Below, piece by piece: positions 1-64,000 of a stretch of DNA of 64,000 nucleotides. Numbering within the stretch: position 1 is the stretch's first letter; every line of letters begins with the position of its first letter. Under the pieces are notes generated by a model. That model did no database searches. It saw nothing but the letters and a program-made list of their open reading frames with translations, and had not been told where the DNA came from. The translations under genes were made by a program, and so were the position numbers. Source of the stretch: Pseudomonadota bacterium (lineage in GTDB: Archaea > Thermoplasmatota > SW-10-69-26 > JACQPN01 > JAJPHT01); NCBI GenBank assembly GCA_021325135.1, contig JAJPHT010000030.1, positions 152,826 to 216,825 on the forward strand. Direction: 5' to 3'.

Positions 1-522
1 CTGGATGGTGCGACGGTCGTTCCCCGCCCCCACGTCACGGAGCCGAAACGGCGGATCGTAGACCCGCCGCGACTCGAGAAAGCGAGAGAACTGCTCTTCG
101 AGGTCTTGGGCACCGCGTTTCAACTCGTCGAGGCTGCTGGGCTCATCGCCCTTCCTCCAAGCCGCGATCGTGACCAGGTGGTGCTTTGGAAGAAGCGAGC
201 CCAACAGCGTGCTCAACGCGCGCCGATCCCCCGTGAGAGTTACCTGGACGAGGTCGAGAGGATCAAACGAGGGCGAGACTTCGGCCAGGAGCTTCGGAGC
301 AACCCGCACGCGGCCTCCTGGAATCCAGACCTGGAGGAGCAACGAGCGGATGCCGGCTGCCGACGCCAAGGCCCAGAGCGAAGCCTCCACGTCGTCGTGG
401 GAACCCACCCGCGCGACGTGCCGGTCGACCAGAGACGCAACGGCGCAACGACCCGAGAGAAGCCACGGGTCCTCTCGCGTTCCGCTGCCTCGAATCTTCA
501 TTGAGATTGTCGTCGCTTCCAT
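1..522 (-). CDS. Hypothetical protein, 3' end runs off the window
   Basis: Open frame MEATTISMKIRGSGTREDPWLL...DRRTIQ from ATG 522 to base 1; missing from the ORF track because it has no stop. Confidence 0.5.
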   Translation of the reverse strand, partial: MEATTISMKIRGSGTREDPWLLSGRCAVASLVDRHVARVGSHDDVEASLWALASAAGIRSLLLQVWIPGGRVRVAPKLLAEVSPSFDPLDLVQVTLTGDRRALSTLLGSLLPKHHLVTIAAWRKGDEPSSLDELKRGAQDLEEQFSRFLESRRVYDPPFRLRDVGAGNDRRTIQ

Positions 523-691
523 GGGGGCCACTCTCGCCTGGCCCTCCACGCGTCCTGTCAACGACCGCGCGCCTCCCCCTCCATGAAGGTTTGGCACACC
601 GCGCCTCAGACCGCGCAAACGGTGCCGTTGACTCCCACGCCGAAAGGAATATTGCGGACACATGCGACACGGCCCGCGTCGCCGATCGGTG

Positions 692-1063
692 ATGGACAGC
701 GCCGAACTCCGACGCAACAAGGCCCAGGAGCACGCCCAGCATGCGCTCAGATCCGAGAATGCGAACCCCCACCCGCGACGCAGACCGCCGCCTCACCATG
801 AAACCGGCGTTCAGGATGGCGCCATGACAGACGCTCTCCCCAGCGACGCGCGCTCGTACTACAAACGCCTCTCGCTGCGACTCCAAGATGCGATGTCGCT
901 TCGGGGAGACAGCCGGCCCATCGGTGTGGGTCAAATGGTCCGCCTCATGGCGCTCTATGATCAGCGCTTGCCCCTCACGGGAGCGGATGCCCTCACCGCG
1001 AAGCGCCTGGACGTTCTCCGCGAGATCCTCGCGAGCGACCGACTCACCCCCATCACGAGGTAA
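692..1063 (+). CDS. Hypothetical protein of the element (start may be further downstream at MTDALPS)
   Basis: Protein-like C-terminal half (RSYYKRLSLRLQDAM...LDVLREIL); followed closely by a small ORF. Confidence 0.45.
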   Translation: MDSAELRRNKAQEHAQHALRSENANPHPRRRPPPHHETGVQDGAMTDALPSDARSYYKRLSLRLQDAMSLRGDSRPIGVGQMVRLMALYDQRLPLTGADALTAKRLDVLREILASDRLTPITR

Positions 1064-1068
1064 AGCTC

Positions 1069-1203
1069 ATGGCTCCAGATCAGGCCAGCATCGTTCGAGC
1101 GCTTCGCAGCCTCGTCTTCACCGACAAGCTTCTCAAGATCGAGGACGCGTGGCGCTACCTCGACCTGCTTGGACTTCCCCGAGATGCTCTCGACGACAAG
1201 TGA
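1069..1203 (+). CDS. Small hypothetical protein (44 aa)
   Basis: MAPDQASIVRALRSLVFTDKLLKIEDAWRYLDLLGLPRDALDDK; GAGGT SD just upstream; below the ORF-track size cutoff. Confidence 0.45.
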   Translation: MAPDQASIVRALRSLVFTDKLLKIEDAWRYLDLLGLPRDALDDK

Positions 1204-1444
1204 GCAATACGCCCATTCGGAGTCGAATCCCCGCCATCACGTCGCTCTCGCGCTCGTGAGTCCCGCCAGATACGATCGCGTTTGAGGAAGACGGGCAGAG
1301 ACAGCATCCCGCCCGGCGTCGGCGAGGCCGCAGCGCTTCGGCATGCAGCAGATTCCGAACCCGTGGTCGTCACGAATCAGGATTTCGCGAGCGTCGTCCG
1401 GGGCGAGCGAGTGGACCGCGACCCGCTTGGGCCGGCGCCCGCGC

Positions 1445-3037
1445 TTATGCGGAGGCCGGCCCGCCCGCGCGTAAGACCTGGATGGCCTGCTTGTATCTGG
1501 TCGTGAGGTCGTCCTTGGCGAACTCACGTCCATCGCTGCGCGATTCGGGATCGGGAGCGAGTTCGAAGACCTCTTGCGGCCTTGAGATGCGCAGGGCGAA
1601 GAGGAGGGCGGCCGCGACGCGCCGCGGGATGAAAAAGCGCTCGCGACTGCTGACAAGCTCCACAGAGGAGGCCTGCACGAGCCGCCGCCTTGAGGCCGAC
1701 ATGCGGTCGATCTCCGAGAGGAGCGTCGTCTCGTGCATCAAGGACTCGCCGACCTTGCCGCCCCCCATGCGCGGCGCGTTGGGCAGCGGCATGAACCCCA
1801 AGATGGGGACGAACTCGTGGTACTTCTGCCGCACCTCCTCCGGCTTCGGCCTGAAGTATTTCTTCCTGGCGTCCTTCAAGAGGTCGCCGCGAAAGTGCTT
1901 GCTCCAGTTGTCCGGAACATCGTGCATCTCGCACACCTGCTCGCCGAAGTGCCGCTGGCAGTGGCACGTCCAGACGCGAAGCGGGTCACGCAGATCCTTC
2001 TCCGTCATGAGCCCAAGGCGCAGGCAGTCGTCCGTGAACAAGGTCCGGTACATCTGGCCCTGCACGAGCGGCGTCCCGCGGTCGCTGAGCCACAACGTGG
2101 AGTAGAGCGGCACGCCGTCCTTGTCGCGGCGGACCTTGCTCTCCCACCACGCGAGGTGCTGCTCCAAGATCGGGCGGAGCTCAGCATCGATCACGCTCCA
2201 GCGGTTCCCCTTGCGCTTCTCCCGCATCCGCTCCCCGTTCGGCTTCGTCTTGAACGGGATGTACACCATGTCCCCGCCCTCGTCGAAGGCCTTAACGTGT
2301 GGGTGCTTCCGGAAGCCCTCCTCGAAGCCCCGAGGCATCGGCAAGCCCTTCGGCATCGGGAGACCGAAGCTCGCGTAGCGGTCGAGCAGGAACATCTCGT
2401 TGGGCCGGAACCACCACTTCGCCGAGCATGCGTAGAACGCCCGCCGCTGCGCGTGCGCCGTCTCGTTGACGAGCCGCACCTGCTCCTCCACGGTCGGGTT
2501 GCGGCGCCGTTCCGAATCGTCCGGGTCGATGGGATCCTCTTCCCAGAACTCGGAAACGACATCCGCCATGATATTGAAGGGGACCGCTCCGATCTTGGCG
2601 AGGAACTTGAAGAACTTGCTCAACGCGTTGACGCGGTGCGAGACCATGGGCTTCGTGAAAAGGGGGCACCCCTGGCAGTTCTCGCGGGCCGCGACCGCGG
2701 CCGGCTTCGATCCCAGCCAGACTTGGCGGCGGCATACCGCATGCTCCTCGATGAACGGCATCGGGCGGAAGCTGCCGCAGTAGTTCGCCTCGACGAAGTG
2801 CAGATGCGCCCAGATGTCGGCCTTCGTCCAGTTCCGGAGCGGAATCTCCTCGCCATCAGGTTTCCGCATGTAGTTGAGCGCGTCCCGGATGCTGCACAGG
2901 TACCCTGTCAGGGTTGGCTTTGCGAGGTGCACGGTCCGGCTGAACGTATCCAGCAACTCAGCGTTGGTCACGTTGTTGCGGACGCCCGGCCGCACAGGGA
3001 CGATCTCGACGCGTTGCCGAAGGCGCGGGTCGATCAC
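1445..3037 (-). CDS. Tyrosine recombinase/integrase, archaeal RGD type
   Basis: Catalytic motifs WFRPNE (R), CHCQRH (HxxR), HFRGD, KKYF (Y); SAM-like NALSKFFKFL; GTG start overlaps the upstream stop (GTGA) with a GGAGGTG SD. Confidence 0.85.
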   Translation of the reverse strand: MIDPRLRQRVEIVPVRPGVRNNVTNAELLDTFSRTVHLAKPTLTGYLCSIRDALNYMRKPDGEEIPLRNWTKADIWAHLHFVEANYCGSFRPMPFIEEHAVCRRQVWLGSKPAAVAARENCQGCPLFTKPMVSHRVNALSKFFKFLAKIGAVPFNIMADVVSEFWEEDPIDPDDSERRRNPTVEEQVRLVNETAHAQRRAFYACSAKWWFRPNEMFLLDRYASFGLPMPKGLPMPRGFEEGFRKHPHVKAFDEGGDMVYIPFKTKPNGERMREKRKGNRWSVIDAELRPILEQHLAWWESKVRRDKDGVPLYSTLWLSDRGTPLVQGQMYRTLFTDDCLRLGLMTEKDLRDPLRVWTCHCQRHFGEQVCEMHDVPDNWSKHFRGDLLKDARKKYFRPKPEEVRQKYHEFVPILGFMPLPNAPRMGGGKVGESLMHETTLLSEIDRMSASRRRLVQASSVELVSSRERFFIPRRVAAALLFALRISRPQEVFELAPDPESRSDGREFAKDDLTTRYKQAIQVLRAGGPASA

Positions 3038-3411
3038 GCTTGCACCTCCTGCTGGAGGAACCGGGCCACGACCTCCGCCCCGGTTGGGAGGCCGTGCAAC
3101 AGGACGATCAGCTTCTCGCGCTGCTCCTGGAGCCGCCGGTTCTGCTTCCGGTACTCCTCCGTCTCCTCGCGTGCCGTCTCCAGCCACCGCCGCAGCCGCT
3201 CGACCTCTTGCTTCAGGCTCTCAACGTACTCCGGCGGGAACACCGACCCACTGATCGCGTTCGCGACCATCTGGACCACCCACGCGCTGAAGTCCGACCC
3301 GAAACCGGCCAGCCGCGCCTGCTCCTTCCGCGCGCGCAGGTCCATCAGCGTGGGCCAATAGACCGTCGAGGAGCGATCCCGCCGTTCCTTCCAATACTCG
3401 GACGCTGCCAT
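3034..3411 (-). CDS. RHH-like/coiled-coil accessory protein translationally coupled to the integrase
   Basis: N-terminal strand-helix-helix pattern (STVYW...FSAWVVQMV), heptad coiled coil; 4-nt overlap with the integrase. Confidence 0.7.
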   Translation of the reverse strand: MAASEYWKERRDRSSTVYWPTLMDLRARKEQARLAGFGSDFSAWVVQMVANAISGSVFPPEYVESLKQEVERLRRWLETAREETEEYRKQNRRLQEQREKLIVLLHGLPTGAEVVARFLQQEVQA

Positions 3412-3461
3412 GTGCGAATCACCATCGTGTCTGCTTCACACGAGATGGGCATTCCCACGCC

Positions 3462-3497
3462 GGCCCGACAAGCCCGACCGGCTCGACGGGCCGAACG
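3462..3497. repeat. Four tandem degenerate 9-bp repeats upstream of the integrase operon
   Basis: GGCCCGACA/AGCCCGACC/GGCTCGACG/GGCCGAACG. Confidence 0.55.
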
Positions 3498-3639
3498 CCC
3501 GCCCCCAATCCAGCTAGCCCGTAGGCGTACGGGAGCTAGCTACTTTGCTTCACTTGGGAAGAAGTAAGGCGCGGGAACTGGCTCCTCCGTGCAGGCAACG
3601 TGGGGCTTCCGACCAGGTAGCCCTGCGCGCACCCGTTTT

Positions 3640-3765
3640 GTCGCGTTCTCTTGGCGTTTCCGCCTCCCGTTTTCTGCTGAGGTTTTCGGCTCGGGCGTTC
3701 CCCGCCCAGATCGTCGCGCCGATTCGGCTCGACGCCGCGCGCGCTCGGGCGGGAGCAGAGCCTGG
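3640..3765. repeat. Conserved non-coding motif, copy A (copy B at ~63843-63960)
   Basis: Core 3688-3731 matches 63890-63934 at 38 of 45 aligned positions; flanks also alignable. Confidence 0.75.
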
Positions 3766-3879
3766 TCGAGAAGGTCGGCCCTCTTGAGCACGGTCCTCGC
3801 CGCGGTCGCGACGCAAGGTTTCAACGACGCGACCAAGGGGTTGATGTCTTCCACGCTTTCTGCCGGCGCGCCTGTTGGC

Positions 3880-4227
3880 ATGGAGAGGCTTCCCTTGAAG
3901 ACAACCGCCCTCACGCTCGCGTTCACCCTGCTCGCCCTCGCCACGCTCGCGCCGCTCGCTGCCGCGGGGCCCCTTGACGCCGTTGCCACGCCGCCCCTGC
4001 CCAGCGTCCGCGCCGGCGCGTCCTTCTCGGAGGGGCAGCTCGCCTACCACGTCGCGGTCGGTGACAACGGGGCCACGGGCTCCGGGCCCTCCCTCGATCT
4101 GCCCCCGGGCAAGTATTTCGCGGATTGCGTCGGCGGCAAGCTCTACATCTACAACGTCATCGGCGTGCTCGTGGGCCGCGGCGCGTGCGATGGAACGTGG
4201 TTCGAGGCCTTCATCGTCACGGCTTGA
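3880..4227 (+). CDS. Small secreted hypothetical protein
   Basis: Signal peptide LKTTALTLAFTLLALATLAPLAAA; two Cys. Confidence 0.7.
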   Translation: MERLPLKTTALTLAFTLLALATLAPLAAAGPLDAVATPPLPSVRAGASFSEGQLAYHVAVGDNGATGSGPSLDLPPGKYFADCVGGKLYIYNVIGVLVGRGACDGTWFEAFIVTA

Positions 4228-4426
4228 AGCAAGGACGGGGCTCGGATTGACTCGCTCGGGGGTGCGGGCGATGCTGCGGCGCTCCCGGCGGGCGTGCGCG
4301 TCCGACCCCGTCGTCGGGTCGGCCCACGGATTCTTCTCGCTCCCGGGCAGCGCCCAAGCCACGCGCCCCGCCCGCATGCCCGGTGGCCAAAACGCTGTTG
4401 CATGCTCCACCCTGCTGCGGACCTGC

Positions 4427-4897
4427 ATGGCCTACTCTCCGACCCAGAACGCGAACGTCAGGACCGGCAATGCGACGGCGGACGAGAACCTCAAGACGTT
4501 CGATCGTCTCGACTTCGAGTCCTGGAACACGAGGGACATGGACGTCTTCGAGGAGATCCACGCGCCCGGCGTCATCGTCCATTATCCCGACGGGACGAAG
4601 ACGGAAGGCTACGACGCGCACGCGAAGTGGGCGCAGGGGTTCTTCGCCGCCTTCGACTCGAAGATCCTCACGCACCCCATCAAGACCGCGACGGGGGATT
4701 GGACGAGCGTCGTGGGCGAGATGGAGGTCACCTTCGCGCGGCCCATGAAGACGCCCGACGGCAGGACCCTCCAGCCCACGAGAAAGACGTGGAAGGGCCG
4801 GATGTGCACGGTCGCGCGCTGGAAGGAGGGCCGCATCGAGGAGGAGATCCTCTTCTGGGACAACGCGGCGCTCTTCAAGGCCGTCGGCCTGGCGTAG
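4427..4897 (+). CDS. SnoaL-like ester cyclase (NTF2 fold)
   Basis: FDRLDFESWN...HAPGVIVHYPDG...EEILFWDN pattern. Confidence 0.85.
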   Translation: MAYSPTQNANVRTGNATADENLKTFDRLDFESWNTRDMDVFEEIHAPGVIVHYPDGTKTEGYDAHAKWAQGFFAAFDSKILTHPIKTATGDWTSVVGEMEVTFARPMKTPDGRTLQPTRKTWKGRMCTVARWKEGRIEEEILFWDNAALFKAVGLA

Positions 4898-5107
4898 CCG
4901 GCTGGCCGTGCGCGCCGCGGCGATGACAAGGAGAGCCGCAAGGGGTCGACCGGTCCGGAGCTCGGGGATTGGCGGCCAAGCGGGGGAGGTGGGGACCGCC
5001 CTTGCGGCAGCTCGCACGGGCGGCGGAGGAGCAAAGCCCTGCCGGGGCCGCCTCGCGCCGGATGCGAGCCCTTCGGTTGCGCCGCGCACCTTGCGGGCTG
5101 CGCGGTG

Positions 5108-33490: not shown

Positions 33491-33570
33491 GGCCGCCCCA
33501 CGGCGCTTCCCCCATGAAAGGGCTCCGCCATGGAAAAACGCCTAAGCCAAGCCCGGCTGGTGGAGGAGGC

Positions 33571-35205
33571 ATGGCCGACATCCACGGCGGCAAGCACGTC
33601 GCCCGCGCCCTCAAGGACGAGGGCGTCACGCACATCTTCACCCTCTGCGGCGGCCACATCATGCCCATCTACGAGGGGTGCCTCGACGAGGGCATCCGCG
33701 TCGTCGACGTGCGCCACGAGCAGGCCGCCGTCATGGCCGCCGACGCCGTGACGCGCCTCACCCGCAACCCGGGCGTCGCCGCCGTCACCGCGGGCCCCGG
33801 CGTCATGAACGGCGTGACCGGCGTCGCCAACGCCCGCGCCGCGGACTCGCCCGTCGTCGTGCTGGGCGGGCAGAGCGACTTCGCGCGCTTCGGGCAGGGC
33901 GCGCTCCAGGAGGGCCCGCAGGCGTCCGTGCTCGCGCCGCTGTGCAAGTGGACCGCCTCGTGCTACGAGTCGCGGCTCCTCCAGGACTACGTGCACACCG
34001 CGTTCCGCGAGGCCACGAGCCCCCGCGCGGGCCCCGCCTTCCTGGAGGTGCCCTGGGACGTGCTCTTCGCCGAGTCGCCCGAGCCCGTCTACCCCCGGGG
34101 CCGCCAGCGCGTGCCGTTCCGCGCGACGCCCGAGGACGTGGACCTGCGCCGCGCGGCCGACCTCCTCGCGCAGGCGCAGCGGCCCGTCGTCGTCGCGGGC
34201 TCCGGCGTCTGGTGGGGCCACGGCGAGAACGCGCTGAAGGCGCTCGCAGAACGCTATCAGGCCCCGGTCTACCTCAACGGCCTCGCCCGCGGCATGCTGC
34301 CGCGCAGCCACAGGCACTTCCTCGTCCACTCGCGCGGCAAGGCCCTGGCCGAGGCCGACGTCGTGCTGGACCTCGCGACGCCCTTCGACTTCCGCATGAG
34401 CTTCGGCGAGGGCGTGAACCCCGACGCGGCCATCATCCACGCCGACACCACCGCGGCCGCGCTGGGCCGGCGCCCCGTGGAGGTCGGCCTCGTGGGGAGC
34501 CTCGGCCTCACGCTGGAGGGCCTGCACGCGCTCCTCCACGGCCGCCCGCAGCCCGACCGCGCCGCGTGGCTTGCCCAGCTTCGCCGCCACGACGAGAAAA
34601 AGATCGCCGAGAACGAGGCCGCCATGGCCGAAGGGGGCGACCCCATGCACGCCCTCGCCATGCTCAAGGGCCTCAACGACGCCATCGACGAGGACACGCT
34701 GGTGGTGGGCGACGGGGGCAACATCGTCGCGCTGGCGGGCAAGGTGCTGGAGGTCTCGCAGCCGGGCCACTGGCTGGACCCCGGCCCCTACGGCACGCTG
34801 GGCGTCGGCCTCCCCTTCGCCATGGCCGCGAAGCTCGTCCATCCCGCCAAGAAGGTCCTCGTGCTCTCGGGCGACGGCGCGTTCGGCCTCAACGGCATGG
34901 AGATCGAGTCGTGCGCGAGGCAGGGCATCCCGGTCACGGTCGTCGTCGCCAACGACGGCGCGTGGAACCAGATCCGCGACCCGCAGCTCACCTTCTACGG
35001 CGAGGAGCGCGCCGTCGCGACGGGGCTCTCCCAGAAGGTCCGCCACGACCAGATCGCCCTCGCGTGCGGCGGGCACGGCGAGCGCGTCGTGGACGCCAAG
35101 GAGGTGGCGCCCGCCATCGAGCGCGCCTTCGCCAGCGGCAAGGCCGCGGTGGTGGACGTCGTCATCGACCGCGCCACCAACAAGGGCTCAGGCAAGCCGA
35201 TGTGA
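33571..35205 (+). CDS. Thiamine-diphosphate enzyme (acetolactate synthase/2-hydroxyacyl-CoA lyase-like)
   Basis: RHEQAA, TAGPG, GDGAFG...ND ThDP motif. Confidence 0.92.
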   Translation: MADIHGGKHVARALKDEGVTHIFTLCGGHIMPIYEGCLDEGIRVVDVRHEQAAVMAADAVTRLTRNPGVAAVTAGPGVMNGVTGVANARAADSPVVVLGGQSDFARFGQGALQEGPQASVLAPLCKWTASCYESRLLQDYVHTAFREATSPRAGPAFLEVPWDVLFAESPEPVYPRGRQRVPFRATPEDVDLRRAADLLAQAQRPVVVAGSGVWWGHGENALKALAERYQAPVYLNGLARGMLPRSHRHFLVHSRGKALAEADVVLDLATPFDFRMSFGEGVNPDAAIIHADTTAAALGRRPVEVGLVGSLGLTLEGLHALLHGRPQPDRAAWLAQLRRHDEKKIAENEAAMAEGGDPMHALAMLKGLNDAIDEDTLVVGDGGNIVALAGKVLEVSQPGHWLDPGPYGTLGVGLPFAMAAKLVHPAKKVLVLSGDGAFGLNGMEIESCARQGIPVTVVVANDGAWNQIRDPQLTFYGEERAVATGLSQKVRHDQIALACGGHGERVVDAKEVAPAIERAFASGKAAVVDVVIDRATNKGSGKPM

Positions 35206-63263: not shown

Positions 63264-63782
63264 ATGTGGGCCACGATCCTCCAGGTGGACACCCCCGCCT
63301 GCGCCTGGTGCCGCCAGGCCAGCACGCAGTTCCCCGAGGTCGGCCTCAAGGTCGTCTCCTACTACTCGCGCAGCGGCGGCAACGCGCTGGAGGTCGTCGA
63401 GATGGAGGGCCAGCGCTGGCCCGAGGTCGTGAAGGGCATCCAGGCCAACGCGACCGTCGACGAGGTCGAGGTGCTCGACTCCACCGCGCGCGCCGCCAAG
63501 GTGCGCATCGCGGCCCGCTCCTGCGCGCTGCCCGCCGCCATCGAGGCCAGCGGCATCGTGCCGCAACTCCCCTTCGAGATCGCGCAGGGGTGCGACAAGT
63601 GGCTCCTCGTGAGCGAGAAGGCGCACGCCAAGGAGTTCTACGACACCCTGCGCGCGCAGGGCATCGGCGTCACCATCGCCTACAGCGGCGAGTACGCGCC
63701 CGACGCCGCGCTCACGCCGCGCCAGCAGGAGATCCTGGAGGCCGCGATGAAGCACGGCTACTACGACTACAAAAACGCTTAG
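63264..63782 (+). pseudogene. Bacterio-opsin-activator (HTH_10) regulator truncated inside the HTH domain
   Basis: LTPRQQEILEAAMKHGYYDY then KNA*; the PR..TL.ELA..LG.S helix-turn-helix seen in both 47653-49233 modules is missing. Confidence 0.8.
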
Positions 63783-64000
63783 TTCCCCGTGAAGTCCCCC
63801 GTGGGTCCCCATTGGGGAATCCTGAGTTCCCCGGCTTCGTGGTGTCGTTTTCGCCTCCGTTACCCTCCCTGTTTTCGCTTGCTGATCTTGGCTCGGGCCG
63901 TTCCCCGCGTGGATCGTCGCGCCGATCTAGCTCGGGCGCGAGGAGGCGCGCCCGGCGGGGACCTTCGAAAGAGAAAACGGGGGGCGGGGAGGGGGTCGGA
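63771..64000. mobile_element. Start of inserted non-coding DNA, probable mobile-element end
   Basis: Abrupt junction after GYYDY; AGT(T/C)CCCCGTG repeats; motif shared with the integrase upstream region. Confidence 0.6.

Follow-up and report, generated by a model that had tools for sequence, protein, structure and literature searches.

A bat-type regulator gene of a soil archaeon is split by an integrative element carrying a putative attachment-site arm shared by elements with two integrase types

The DNA analyzed here, called the window below, is a stretch of 64,000 nucleotides (C46:152826-216825) from a 3.77-Mb genome bin of an uncultured soil archaeon (51 contigs, 71.6% GC); contig C46 ends at window position 64000. 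Close to this end lies a regulator gene of the bat-type HTH_10 family that stops abruptly and is followed by an array of short direct repeats and a conserved non-coding motif. The features of this region, together with two genes of the same element on contig C26, are as follows.

Window 63264 to 63782, plus strand: truncated HTH_10 (bat-type) regulator gene, taken from the list of open reading frames, matching Pfam HTH_10 at positions 1-21 only and divergent from a DoxX gene.
Window 63761 to 63770, plus strand: attL copy of the 10-bp core CTACGACTAC, the predicted crossover region; the same 10-mer stands at C26:15955-15964.
Window 63771 to 64000, plus strand: left end of the integrative element E1, which continues on C26:1-15964, as judged from the contig overlap, from collinearity with contig C45 and from GC content.
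Window 63781 to 63833, plus strand: direct GTYCCCCG box array, made of two 12-bp tandem units, the imperfect palindrome GTCCCCATTGGGGAA and a third box; homologous boxes accompany the motif in the C45 element and in copy A.
Window 63834 to 63934, plus strand: copy B of the conserved motif (nhmmer E 5e-22; covariance-model search; four-way alignment with invariant columns).
C26:13882-15051, minus strand: E1 tyrosine integrase, 389 aa, 0.9 kb from attR, with matches to PF00589, phrog_1 and XerA.
C26:15052-15837, minus strand: small E1 gene upstream of the integrase, 261 aa, abutting it and co-oriented with it.

The truncated open reading frame retains 169 native codons, up to GYYDY, and then runs into DNA of the element: its end reads ...GGCTACTACGACTAC followed by AAAAACGCTTAG, which encodes K, N and A and a stop. 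Only positions 1-21 out of the 53 of the Pfam HTH_10 profile (PF04967) are covered (C46:216536-216598, 23.2 bits). The original prediction, made from the window alone, was that an integrative element had cut the regulator at its GYY motif, and that an extension to the right should reveal the gene's missing 3' half, a duplicated core and an integrase. All of these were found on C26. A genome-wide HTH_10 search placed profile positions 18-53 at C26:15956-16063 (41.6 bits), 16 kb further on and right behind the tyrosine-integrase module. Positions 18-21 occur in both gene halves, and the full domain of 53 positions is recovered, split over the two contigs. The core CTACGACTAC is identical at both joints: the left joint, at window 63761-63770, reads ...CACGGCTA-CTACGACTAC-AAAAACGC..., and the right joint, at C26:15955-15964 before the 3' half of the gene, reads ...CATAGGAG-CTACGACTAC-CCGCGGCGC.... 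In the protein, this core covers the YDY codons of the GYYDYPR motif.

In silico removal of the 16,153-bp element joined the 5' half to C26:15965-16093 and restored an in-frame gene of 211 codons (636 nt), whose product aligned end to end with intact PF04967-bearing orthologues. The 16 closest orthologues in a database of 5.8 billion proteins (60-82% identity) were all intact, with 205-230 aa and a full HTH_10 domain. The closest one (82% identity, 215 aa) reads ...GYYDYPRRITLSHLAERIGIAKSTLSQSLTMIESEVMKTA, which corresponds nearly residue for residue to the stranded 3' half. Furthermore, the intact orthologue in genome G008 is likewise divergent from a DoxX gene, matching the layout in the window. 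The product left by the insertion is a protein of 172 aa without the 42 C-terminal residues, which form most of the helix-turn-helix domain. Because most of the DNA-binding domain is lost (42 of the 211 residues) and the element supplies only three foreign codons and a stop, the regulator gene is probably inactivated. The insertion is probably recent. In a congener (genome G003), an HTH_10 match at C88:9394-9468 covers only profile positions 5-29, within an open frame of 228 aa; judging from this match, the congener may have a further HTH_10 gene that is truncated or atypical.

The contig ends 230 bp past the break in the gene, the terminal sequence of C46 is related to a repeat on C45, and the source is a metagenome-assembled bin with an estimated contamination of 5.6%, all of which would suit a chimeric join made at a repeat during assembly. 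We nevertheless regard such an artefact as extremely improbable, as the exact complementary 3' half of the gene is present, in frame and with a 10-bp overlap, and lies at the far end of a low-GC island, directly after the integrase module. In addition, the contig that carries it is the very one whose start overlaps the end of C46. This overlap spans 41 bp (C26:1-41), 40 of which are identical and one mismatched, and a paralogous element inside C45 is collinear across the C46/C26 break. From the overlap and its consistency with the C45 paralogue, C26 (L001) appears to continue C46. Taken at the level of sequence, the break in the HTH_10 gene is a site-specific insertion and not an assembly artefact, and the joints show E1 to have been inserted by site-specific recombination within CTACGACTAC. 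The split gene, the duplicated core, the integrase and the low GC are all in agreement with the predicted cut at the GYY motif.

The sequence at which the assembly broke is a GC-rich hairpin repeat (C26:1-363) located 3' of the motif. A stretch of ~360 bp with 81% GC is common to C26:1-363 and C45:67897-68253. It consists of successive perfect GC-rich hairpins with GGTGGRGG between them and is 90% identical in two otherwise unrelated elements. This hairpin cluster (300 nt, E1 and C45) folds much better than shuffled sequences (z = -4.4).

E1 measures 16,153 bp including one copy of the core, is bounded by the 10-bp direct repeat and has a GC content of 67.1% (genome, 71.6%). The joints have only 10 bp in common, and around the core no inverted repeats were seen that would clearly be binding sites. 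Both the circular attP junction (…CATAGGAGCTACGACTACAAAAACGC…) and the empty attB site (rejoined gene, …GGCTACTACGACTACCCGCGG…) are absent from this assembly. The integrase scored 27.2 bits against PF00589 in a six-frame search of the genome (cut-off, 27.1) and 25.5 bits in an hmmscan of the protein. It matched the phrog_1 integrase at 2.3e-16 and XerA (NF040815) at 6e-10, the latter far below the XerA cut-off. Residues R184, H286, R289, H310 and Y335 are invariant in 15 homologues, their catalytic roles being assigned by position, and the closest homologues (P0004-P0006) are 66-76% identical. The cargo consists mostly of secreted proteins without a Pfam match, along with one double winged-helix protein and one weak trypsin-like match; neither a replication-initiator nor any other replication gene nor a capsid gene was recognized in the cargo annotation.

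We then turn to the non-coding DNA at the left end of E1. The two 12-bp tandem units are AGTTCCCCGTGA (63781-63792) and AGTCCCCCGTGG (63793-63804), a third AGTTCCCCG is found at 63825, and the C45 element and copy A carry boxes with the same 12-bp period at the equivalent position. Altogether, the 190 nt from 63771 to 63960 contain four direct GTYCCCCG boxes, where the genome-wide frequency predicts 0.017 (post-hoc Poisson P ~3e-9). The fourth box, GTTCCCCG, is part of the near-invariant 19-nt core of copy B, GGCTCGGGCCGTTCCCCGC, at 63890-63908. Between 63890-63934 and 3688-3731, 38 of 45 columns are identical (one gap, six mismatches), including an identical 15-mer, GATCGTCGCGCCGAT, and a genome-wide blastn gave E 2.7e-7 for a 74-nt alignment of the copies. 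The repeats, the third box and the 38/45 match had all been described from the window, and all are present.

A profile search of the 3.77-Mb genome returned only three significant copies of the motif (window 63834-63934, window 3635-3731 and C45:68276-68362) and nothing else below E 0.1. A fourth copy was found with a sequence-only covariance model on contig C328 of the congener. The motif is therefore not a widespread intergenic repeat without a link to integrases: its three genome copies and the copy in the congener stand by att joints or by an integrase operon, which is in good agreement with the proposal that a conserved terminal cis-motif marks a small family of integrative elements. Homology among the copies begins at the extreme left end of E1, with the 12-bp-period boxes, and goes on to the core GGCTCGGG(C)CGTTCYCCGC. 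Each copy lies at most ~200 bp from a real or apparent attachment joint, on the integrase-distal side; in E1, the C45 element and the congener, it is found 60-200 bp inside this joint. After the motif, E1 and the C45 element carry the GC-rich hairpin cluster; copy A and the congener copy are without it.

The C19 element, which encodes the closest paralogue of the E1 integrase, gave no motif copy in the profile search, indicating that the motif is not essential for the E1 integrase family. No credible copies were found in 15 genomes of the order, where blastn gave only generic GC-rich hairpin matches; covariance-model hits below E 1e-4 in these genomes lay inside coding regions and were rejected. 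Similarly, a pattern scan of IMG/VR returned 10 chance matches in bacterial-phage coding DNA and no credible copy. It had also been suggested that the first bases of the element, AAAAACGCTTAG, resemble a promoter-like sequence at ~33533. The resemblance exists, since AAAAACGCCTAA at window 33534-33545, ~35 nt upstream of the ATG at 33573, matches the terminal 12-mer of E1 at 10 of 12 positions, but it carries little weight. Such a match is not significant by itself, and we treated the kinship as uninformative; AAAAACGCCTAA could be a promoter-like element.

Copy A lies at the other end of the window, next to the following features.

Window 1445 to 3037, minus strand: divergent tyrosine recombinase, 530 aa, as assigned by profile alignment; it has HxxR and RGD boxes, a conserved Tyr and four invariant Cys.
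Window 3034 to 3411, minus strand: small gene, 125 aa, which opens the operon beside copy A and has a coiled-coil region; its paralogues precede every copy of the 530-aa integrase.
Window 3512 to 3541, no strand assigned: imperfect palindrome of 30 bp, AGCTAGCCCGTA-GGCG-TACGGGAGCTAGCT, present only once in the genome and flanked by copy A and the integrase operon.
Window 3635 to 3731, plus strand: copy A of the conserved motif (nhmmer E 3.7e-17; alignments).

As predicted, copy A is located upstream of an integrase operon. The distance is ~225-330 bp from the operon start at 3411, the orientation is divergent, and the second of the two genes has the R...K...HxxR...H...Y pattern of tyrosine recombinases. 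The two genes overlap by 4 nt, and the same pair is found on C46 (in the window), C45, C39 and C7, with R211, K274, R362, H363, H381, R383 and Y394 of the 530-aa protein invariant across the four paralogues. This protein had no sequence hit in Pfam, NCBIfam, PHROG or the PDB, and a PDB profile search was empty. Its AlphaFold model, built on a 4-sequence alignment, reached a pLDDT of 56, which was too poor, and was kept out of the fold search. By hhalign, 320 columns could be aligned between the 530-aa family and the integrase family of E1 (E 9.5e-5, probability 59%), and the 125-aa gene gave a weak, collinear match to the small gene upstream of the E1 integrase (E 6.7e-4, probability 27%). Pairwise BLASTP found nothing between the two integrase types or between the two small partner genes. 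On the profile alignments, we took the 530-aa protein to be a divergent tyrosine recombinase; remote homology is the most that can be claimed for the two small partner proteins.

The palindrome at 3512-3541 takes the position that the att core has in the rejoined circular forms of E1 and of the C45 element, and is a candidate for an unsplit att core. It also has the form of a tyrosine-recombinase core site. Likewise, the layout around copy A (window 3034-3731) is a candidate unsplit att site or tandem-insertion joint. Copy A is situated near the right edge of a low-GC region of ~158 kb. The first ~157.8 kb of C46 (C46:1-152825 plus window 1-4975) have 60-70% GC, compared to 72-77% for the rest, and run off the contig start; they are a very large foreign region. 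At the right border of this region (window ~4900-5100), neither a hairpin-repeat half nor an obvious att site was seen.

The related elements differ from E1 in their targets. The C45 element (~14 kb, low GC3) carries the 530-aa module at one end and the motif at the other. Joining its outer flanks gave GGGGGGTTCGGGGGGCGCAGCCCCCTGACG, a hairpin repeat with 29 exact copies in the genome and none for the reversed control. The C19 element (L005, C19:24220-33480, ~9 kb), whose integrase is 57% identical to that of E1, sits inside a hairpin repeat with the core TCAGGGG, and its rejoined target has 25 exact genome copies. For the congener, the target predicted by joining the flanks of the motif contig and of the integrase contig is a 25-mer with 12 exact copies, or 59 with up to three mismatches (reversed control, 0). 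This element is built like E1, in the order joint, boxes, motif, cargo, integrase and joint, but its insertion site is a hairpin repeat. In the C7 element (L004, 440-690), the joint on the integrase side falls at the same position of the hairpin repeat as in C45; the C39 copy (L003, C39:17674-17868) has no clear repeat at its joint.

The E1 integrase family was not found in 401 sampled Thermoplasmatota genomes, in the GTDB species collection (except for the congener) or in IMG/VR, and a metagenome scan yielded four loci. In two of these, L042 and L043, integrase relatives end less than ~20 nt from a palindromic repeat, at two different genomic places. Of five other contexts of the family, two are in multicopy REP-like hairpins, two border on a palindromic repeat, and the fifth is of insufficient length to be read. 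Unlike these repeats, the rejoined target of E1 is unique in the genome, with no further copies even when three mismatches are allowed.

These contexts bear on the further suggestion that HTH_10 genes, at their conserved GYY codons, are the target of the family rather than tRNAs. The second half of this suggestion holds, as none of the elements has a tRNA gene nearby. As to the first half, the crossover core coincides exactly with the Y-D-Y codons in the best-conserved motif of HTH_10, and the genome offers several HTH_10 paralogues. However, only one paralogue is interrupted and none of the others contains the 10-mer CTACGACTAC, while the 29 other copies of this 10-mer lie in unrelated genes and have no element beside them. 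Moreover, no HTH_10 fragment was found near the C19 integrase or the congener integrase, whose elements are in REP-like repeats, as two metagenome relatives probably are too, and all 16 orthologues at 60-82% identity are full length. With none of the five other contexts in an HTH_10 gene and the relatives in or beside repeats, we consider specific targeting of HTH_10 genes to be very unlikely. Judged by these flanks, the usual target of the element family is a multicopy hairpin repeat and not HTH_10 genes. Because the relatives lie in or beside REP-like hairpin or palindromic repeats, we read the insertion in the regulator as a single event, not as a family habit.

A palindromic repeat of the (GATTCTGAG)n type, which has ~28 genome loci, is found at C26:16096-16278, just after the stop codon of the regulator and 132 bp beyond the right joint of E1. 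Repeats of this type are also those abutted by the integrase relatives at L042 and L043. Such proximity to a copy has a probability of ~0.2% by chance, and the repeat may thus help target choice.

What the motif itself does was addressed by weighing three readings. A small structured RNA, raised in the original prediction, or an origin of replication would each account for a near-invariant 19-nt island amid diverged sequence in four elements. The direct repeats resemble iterons, and the adjacent 300-nt hairpin cluster, 90% identical between E1 and C45, folds well above chance. Yet the motif had no match in Rfam at E up to 1, and its own fold z-scores of -0.6 to +0.8 on the two strands are no better than those of shuffled sequences. 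Compensatory changes were seen in only 2 of the 15 predicted pairs among four sequences, with a covariation term of -0.69 kcal/mol. In addition, copy A and the congener copy do without the hairpin cluster, and no replication-initiator gene was recognized in E1. We consider an RNA or an origin quite unlikely, and the non-coding RNA alternative found no support. Since the motif has no Rfam match, no folding above shuffles and little covariation, we read it as a protein-binding module acting at the DNA level.

In this picture, E1 has entered the chromosome by site-specific recombination, with the crossover in the 10-bp core CTACGACTAC. Integration carried in the integrase and its small upstream partner gene and stranded the 3' remainder of the regulator 16 kb off, beside the integrase. 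The integrase-distal arm comprises, from the joint inward, the direct GTYCCCCG boxes (two of them with 12-bp spacing), the motif of ~100 nt and, in E1 and C45, the hairpin cluster. In the excised circle, this arm would come to lie ~200-330 bp upstream of the integrase operon and divergent from it, in the order integrase, small gene, ~120-200 bp, core, boxes and motif. Copy A (window 3034-3731) shows exactly the order predicted for the circles, in unsplit form. Binding of the arm, whether by the integrase, by its small partner protein or by both, would build or control the recombination complex. By analogy with the P arm of lambda attP, we infer that the arm is an att-site DNA module for protein binding.

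The main rival to this reading is a promoter or operator that acts across the att site and either controls the integrase operon in the circle or drives the first cargo genes rightwards. Integration parts the motif from the integrase genes, so that integrase expression would depend on the state of the element, a logic comparable to lambda sib retroregulation. The position of copy A, ~225-330 bp upstream of the divergent integrase operon and with a gene start 50-110 nt downstream on the other side, would suit such a role. The rejoined circular forms of E1 and of the C45 element give the same geometry, and two GTTTTC elements ~27-36 bp apart precede the core in E1 and in copy A. However, the spacing between the T-rich element and the core varies between copies, C45 being without 7 nt, and no recognizable archaeal TATA/BRE stands at a fixed distance. 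Furthermore, the motif in E1 and C45 is followed by the 360-bp hairpin cluster and not by a gene. We give a cross-att promoter or operator an appreciable chance, without finding it probable.

Overall, we are confident, short of certain, in a reading with three parts: E1 was inserted in the HTH_10 gene, its arm would serve as a protein-binding module of the att site, and the event was a single one rather than a habit of the family. The same arm stands beside the att joints of elements with two distantly related integrase types. A more far-reaching possibility, which we find doubtful in its entirety, is that archaeal elements with different types of integrase swap the arm, with its GTYCCCCG boxes and GGCTCGGGCCGTTCCCCGC core, as an exchangeable cassette that controls recombination. 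Such a cassette would adjoin the integrase operon only in the excised circle, and would hence report the state of the element and gate integration and excision. E1 would then be a case in which a hairpin-repeat integrase family was retargeted to a coding sequence, switching off a regulator.

To our knowledge, almost no mobile elements have been characterized in soil Thermoplasmatota. The present analysis provides precise ends, a core and a target for an undescribed integrative element of this group, whose insertion would knock out the regulator of a stress locus (the gene is probably inactivated). The att-adjacent DNA signature could serve in the search for those ends of related elements that lie far from the integrase and are usually hard to locate. 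That one integrase family is associated with both multicopy hairpin repeats and a unique coding sequence bears on the evolution of target choice in tyrosine integrases, and four natural pairs of att sites are offered for biochemical tests.

The arms of lambda attP contain arm-type Int sites and tandem Xis sites, and lambda also has sib retroregulation. As in lambda attP, the elements described here have short direct repeats on the integrase-distal side of the crossover core, no more than ~150 bp from it, and the repeat array adjoins the integrase genes only in the circular form. Unlike in lambda, the same arm is common to elements with two different integrase types; the arm is a putative binding module, and the integrases are related to lambda Int at the superfamily level only. 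Similarly, the C45, C19, C7 and congener elements resemble REP-specific insertion sequences in sitting at a fixed position of multicopy hairpin repeats; unlike REP-targeting elements, E1 has a target that is not a repeat and is unique in the genome.

The SNJ2-type integration module of haloarchaeal pleolipoviruses combines a tyrosine integrase with two small accessory genes and targets a tRNA-Met gene through a 14-bp core (PMC5861418). Like this module, the integrases studied here are found, by gene layout, in an operon-like unit with a small co-oriented accessory gene and are associated with diverse integrated elements. However, a single small partner gene precedes the integrase instead of two, the core measures 10-11 bp instead of 14 bp, and a tRNA-Met gene is the target of SNJ2 only. 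Neither integrase had a match at E 0.01 among 50,697 phage and virus records searched by tblastn, and a relationship to IntSNJ2 was not recovered in this search.

Archaeal integrated mobile elements in the 3'-distal part of protein-coding genes are on record, for example the thaumarchaeal iMGE NitGar-E6 in a gene for an AsnC-family regulator (PMC6563490; PMC8371274, section 19). Like the thaumarchaeal iMGEs (PMC6563490), E1 is a tyrosine-integrase element with short direct repeats that lies in the distal part of a regulator gene and not in a tRNA gene, and its boundary was verified against uninterrupted orthologues. Unlike in those elements, the insertion of E1 removes 42 of 211 residues, including most of the DNA-binding domain. 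Its integrase also belongs to a different family, nearly unrecognizable to Pfam, whose other members use multicopy hairpin repeats. The presence of an integrative element in the distal part of a coding gene is thus a known kind of event, and SNJ2 provides a precedent for integrases with small partner genes. The new aspects are this family of integrases and elements, the sharing of an att-adjacent arm by two integrase types, and the finding that one family uses repeats as well as a coding sequence.
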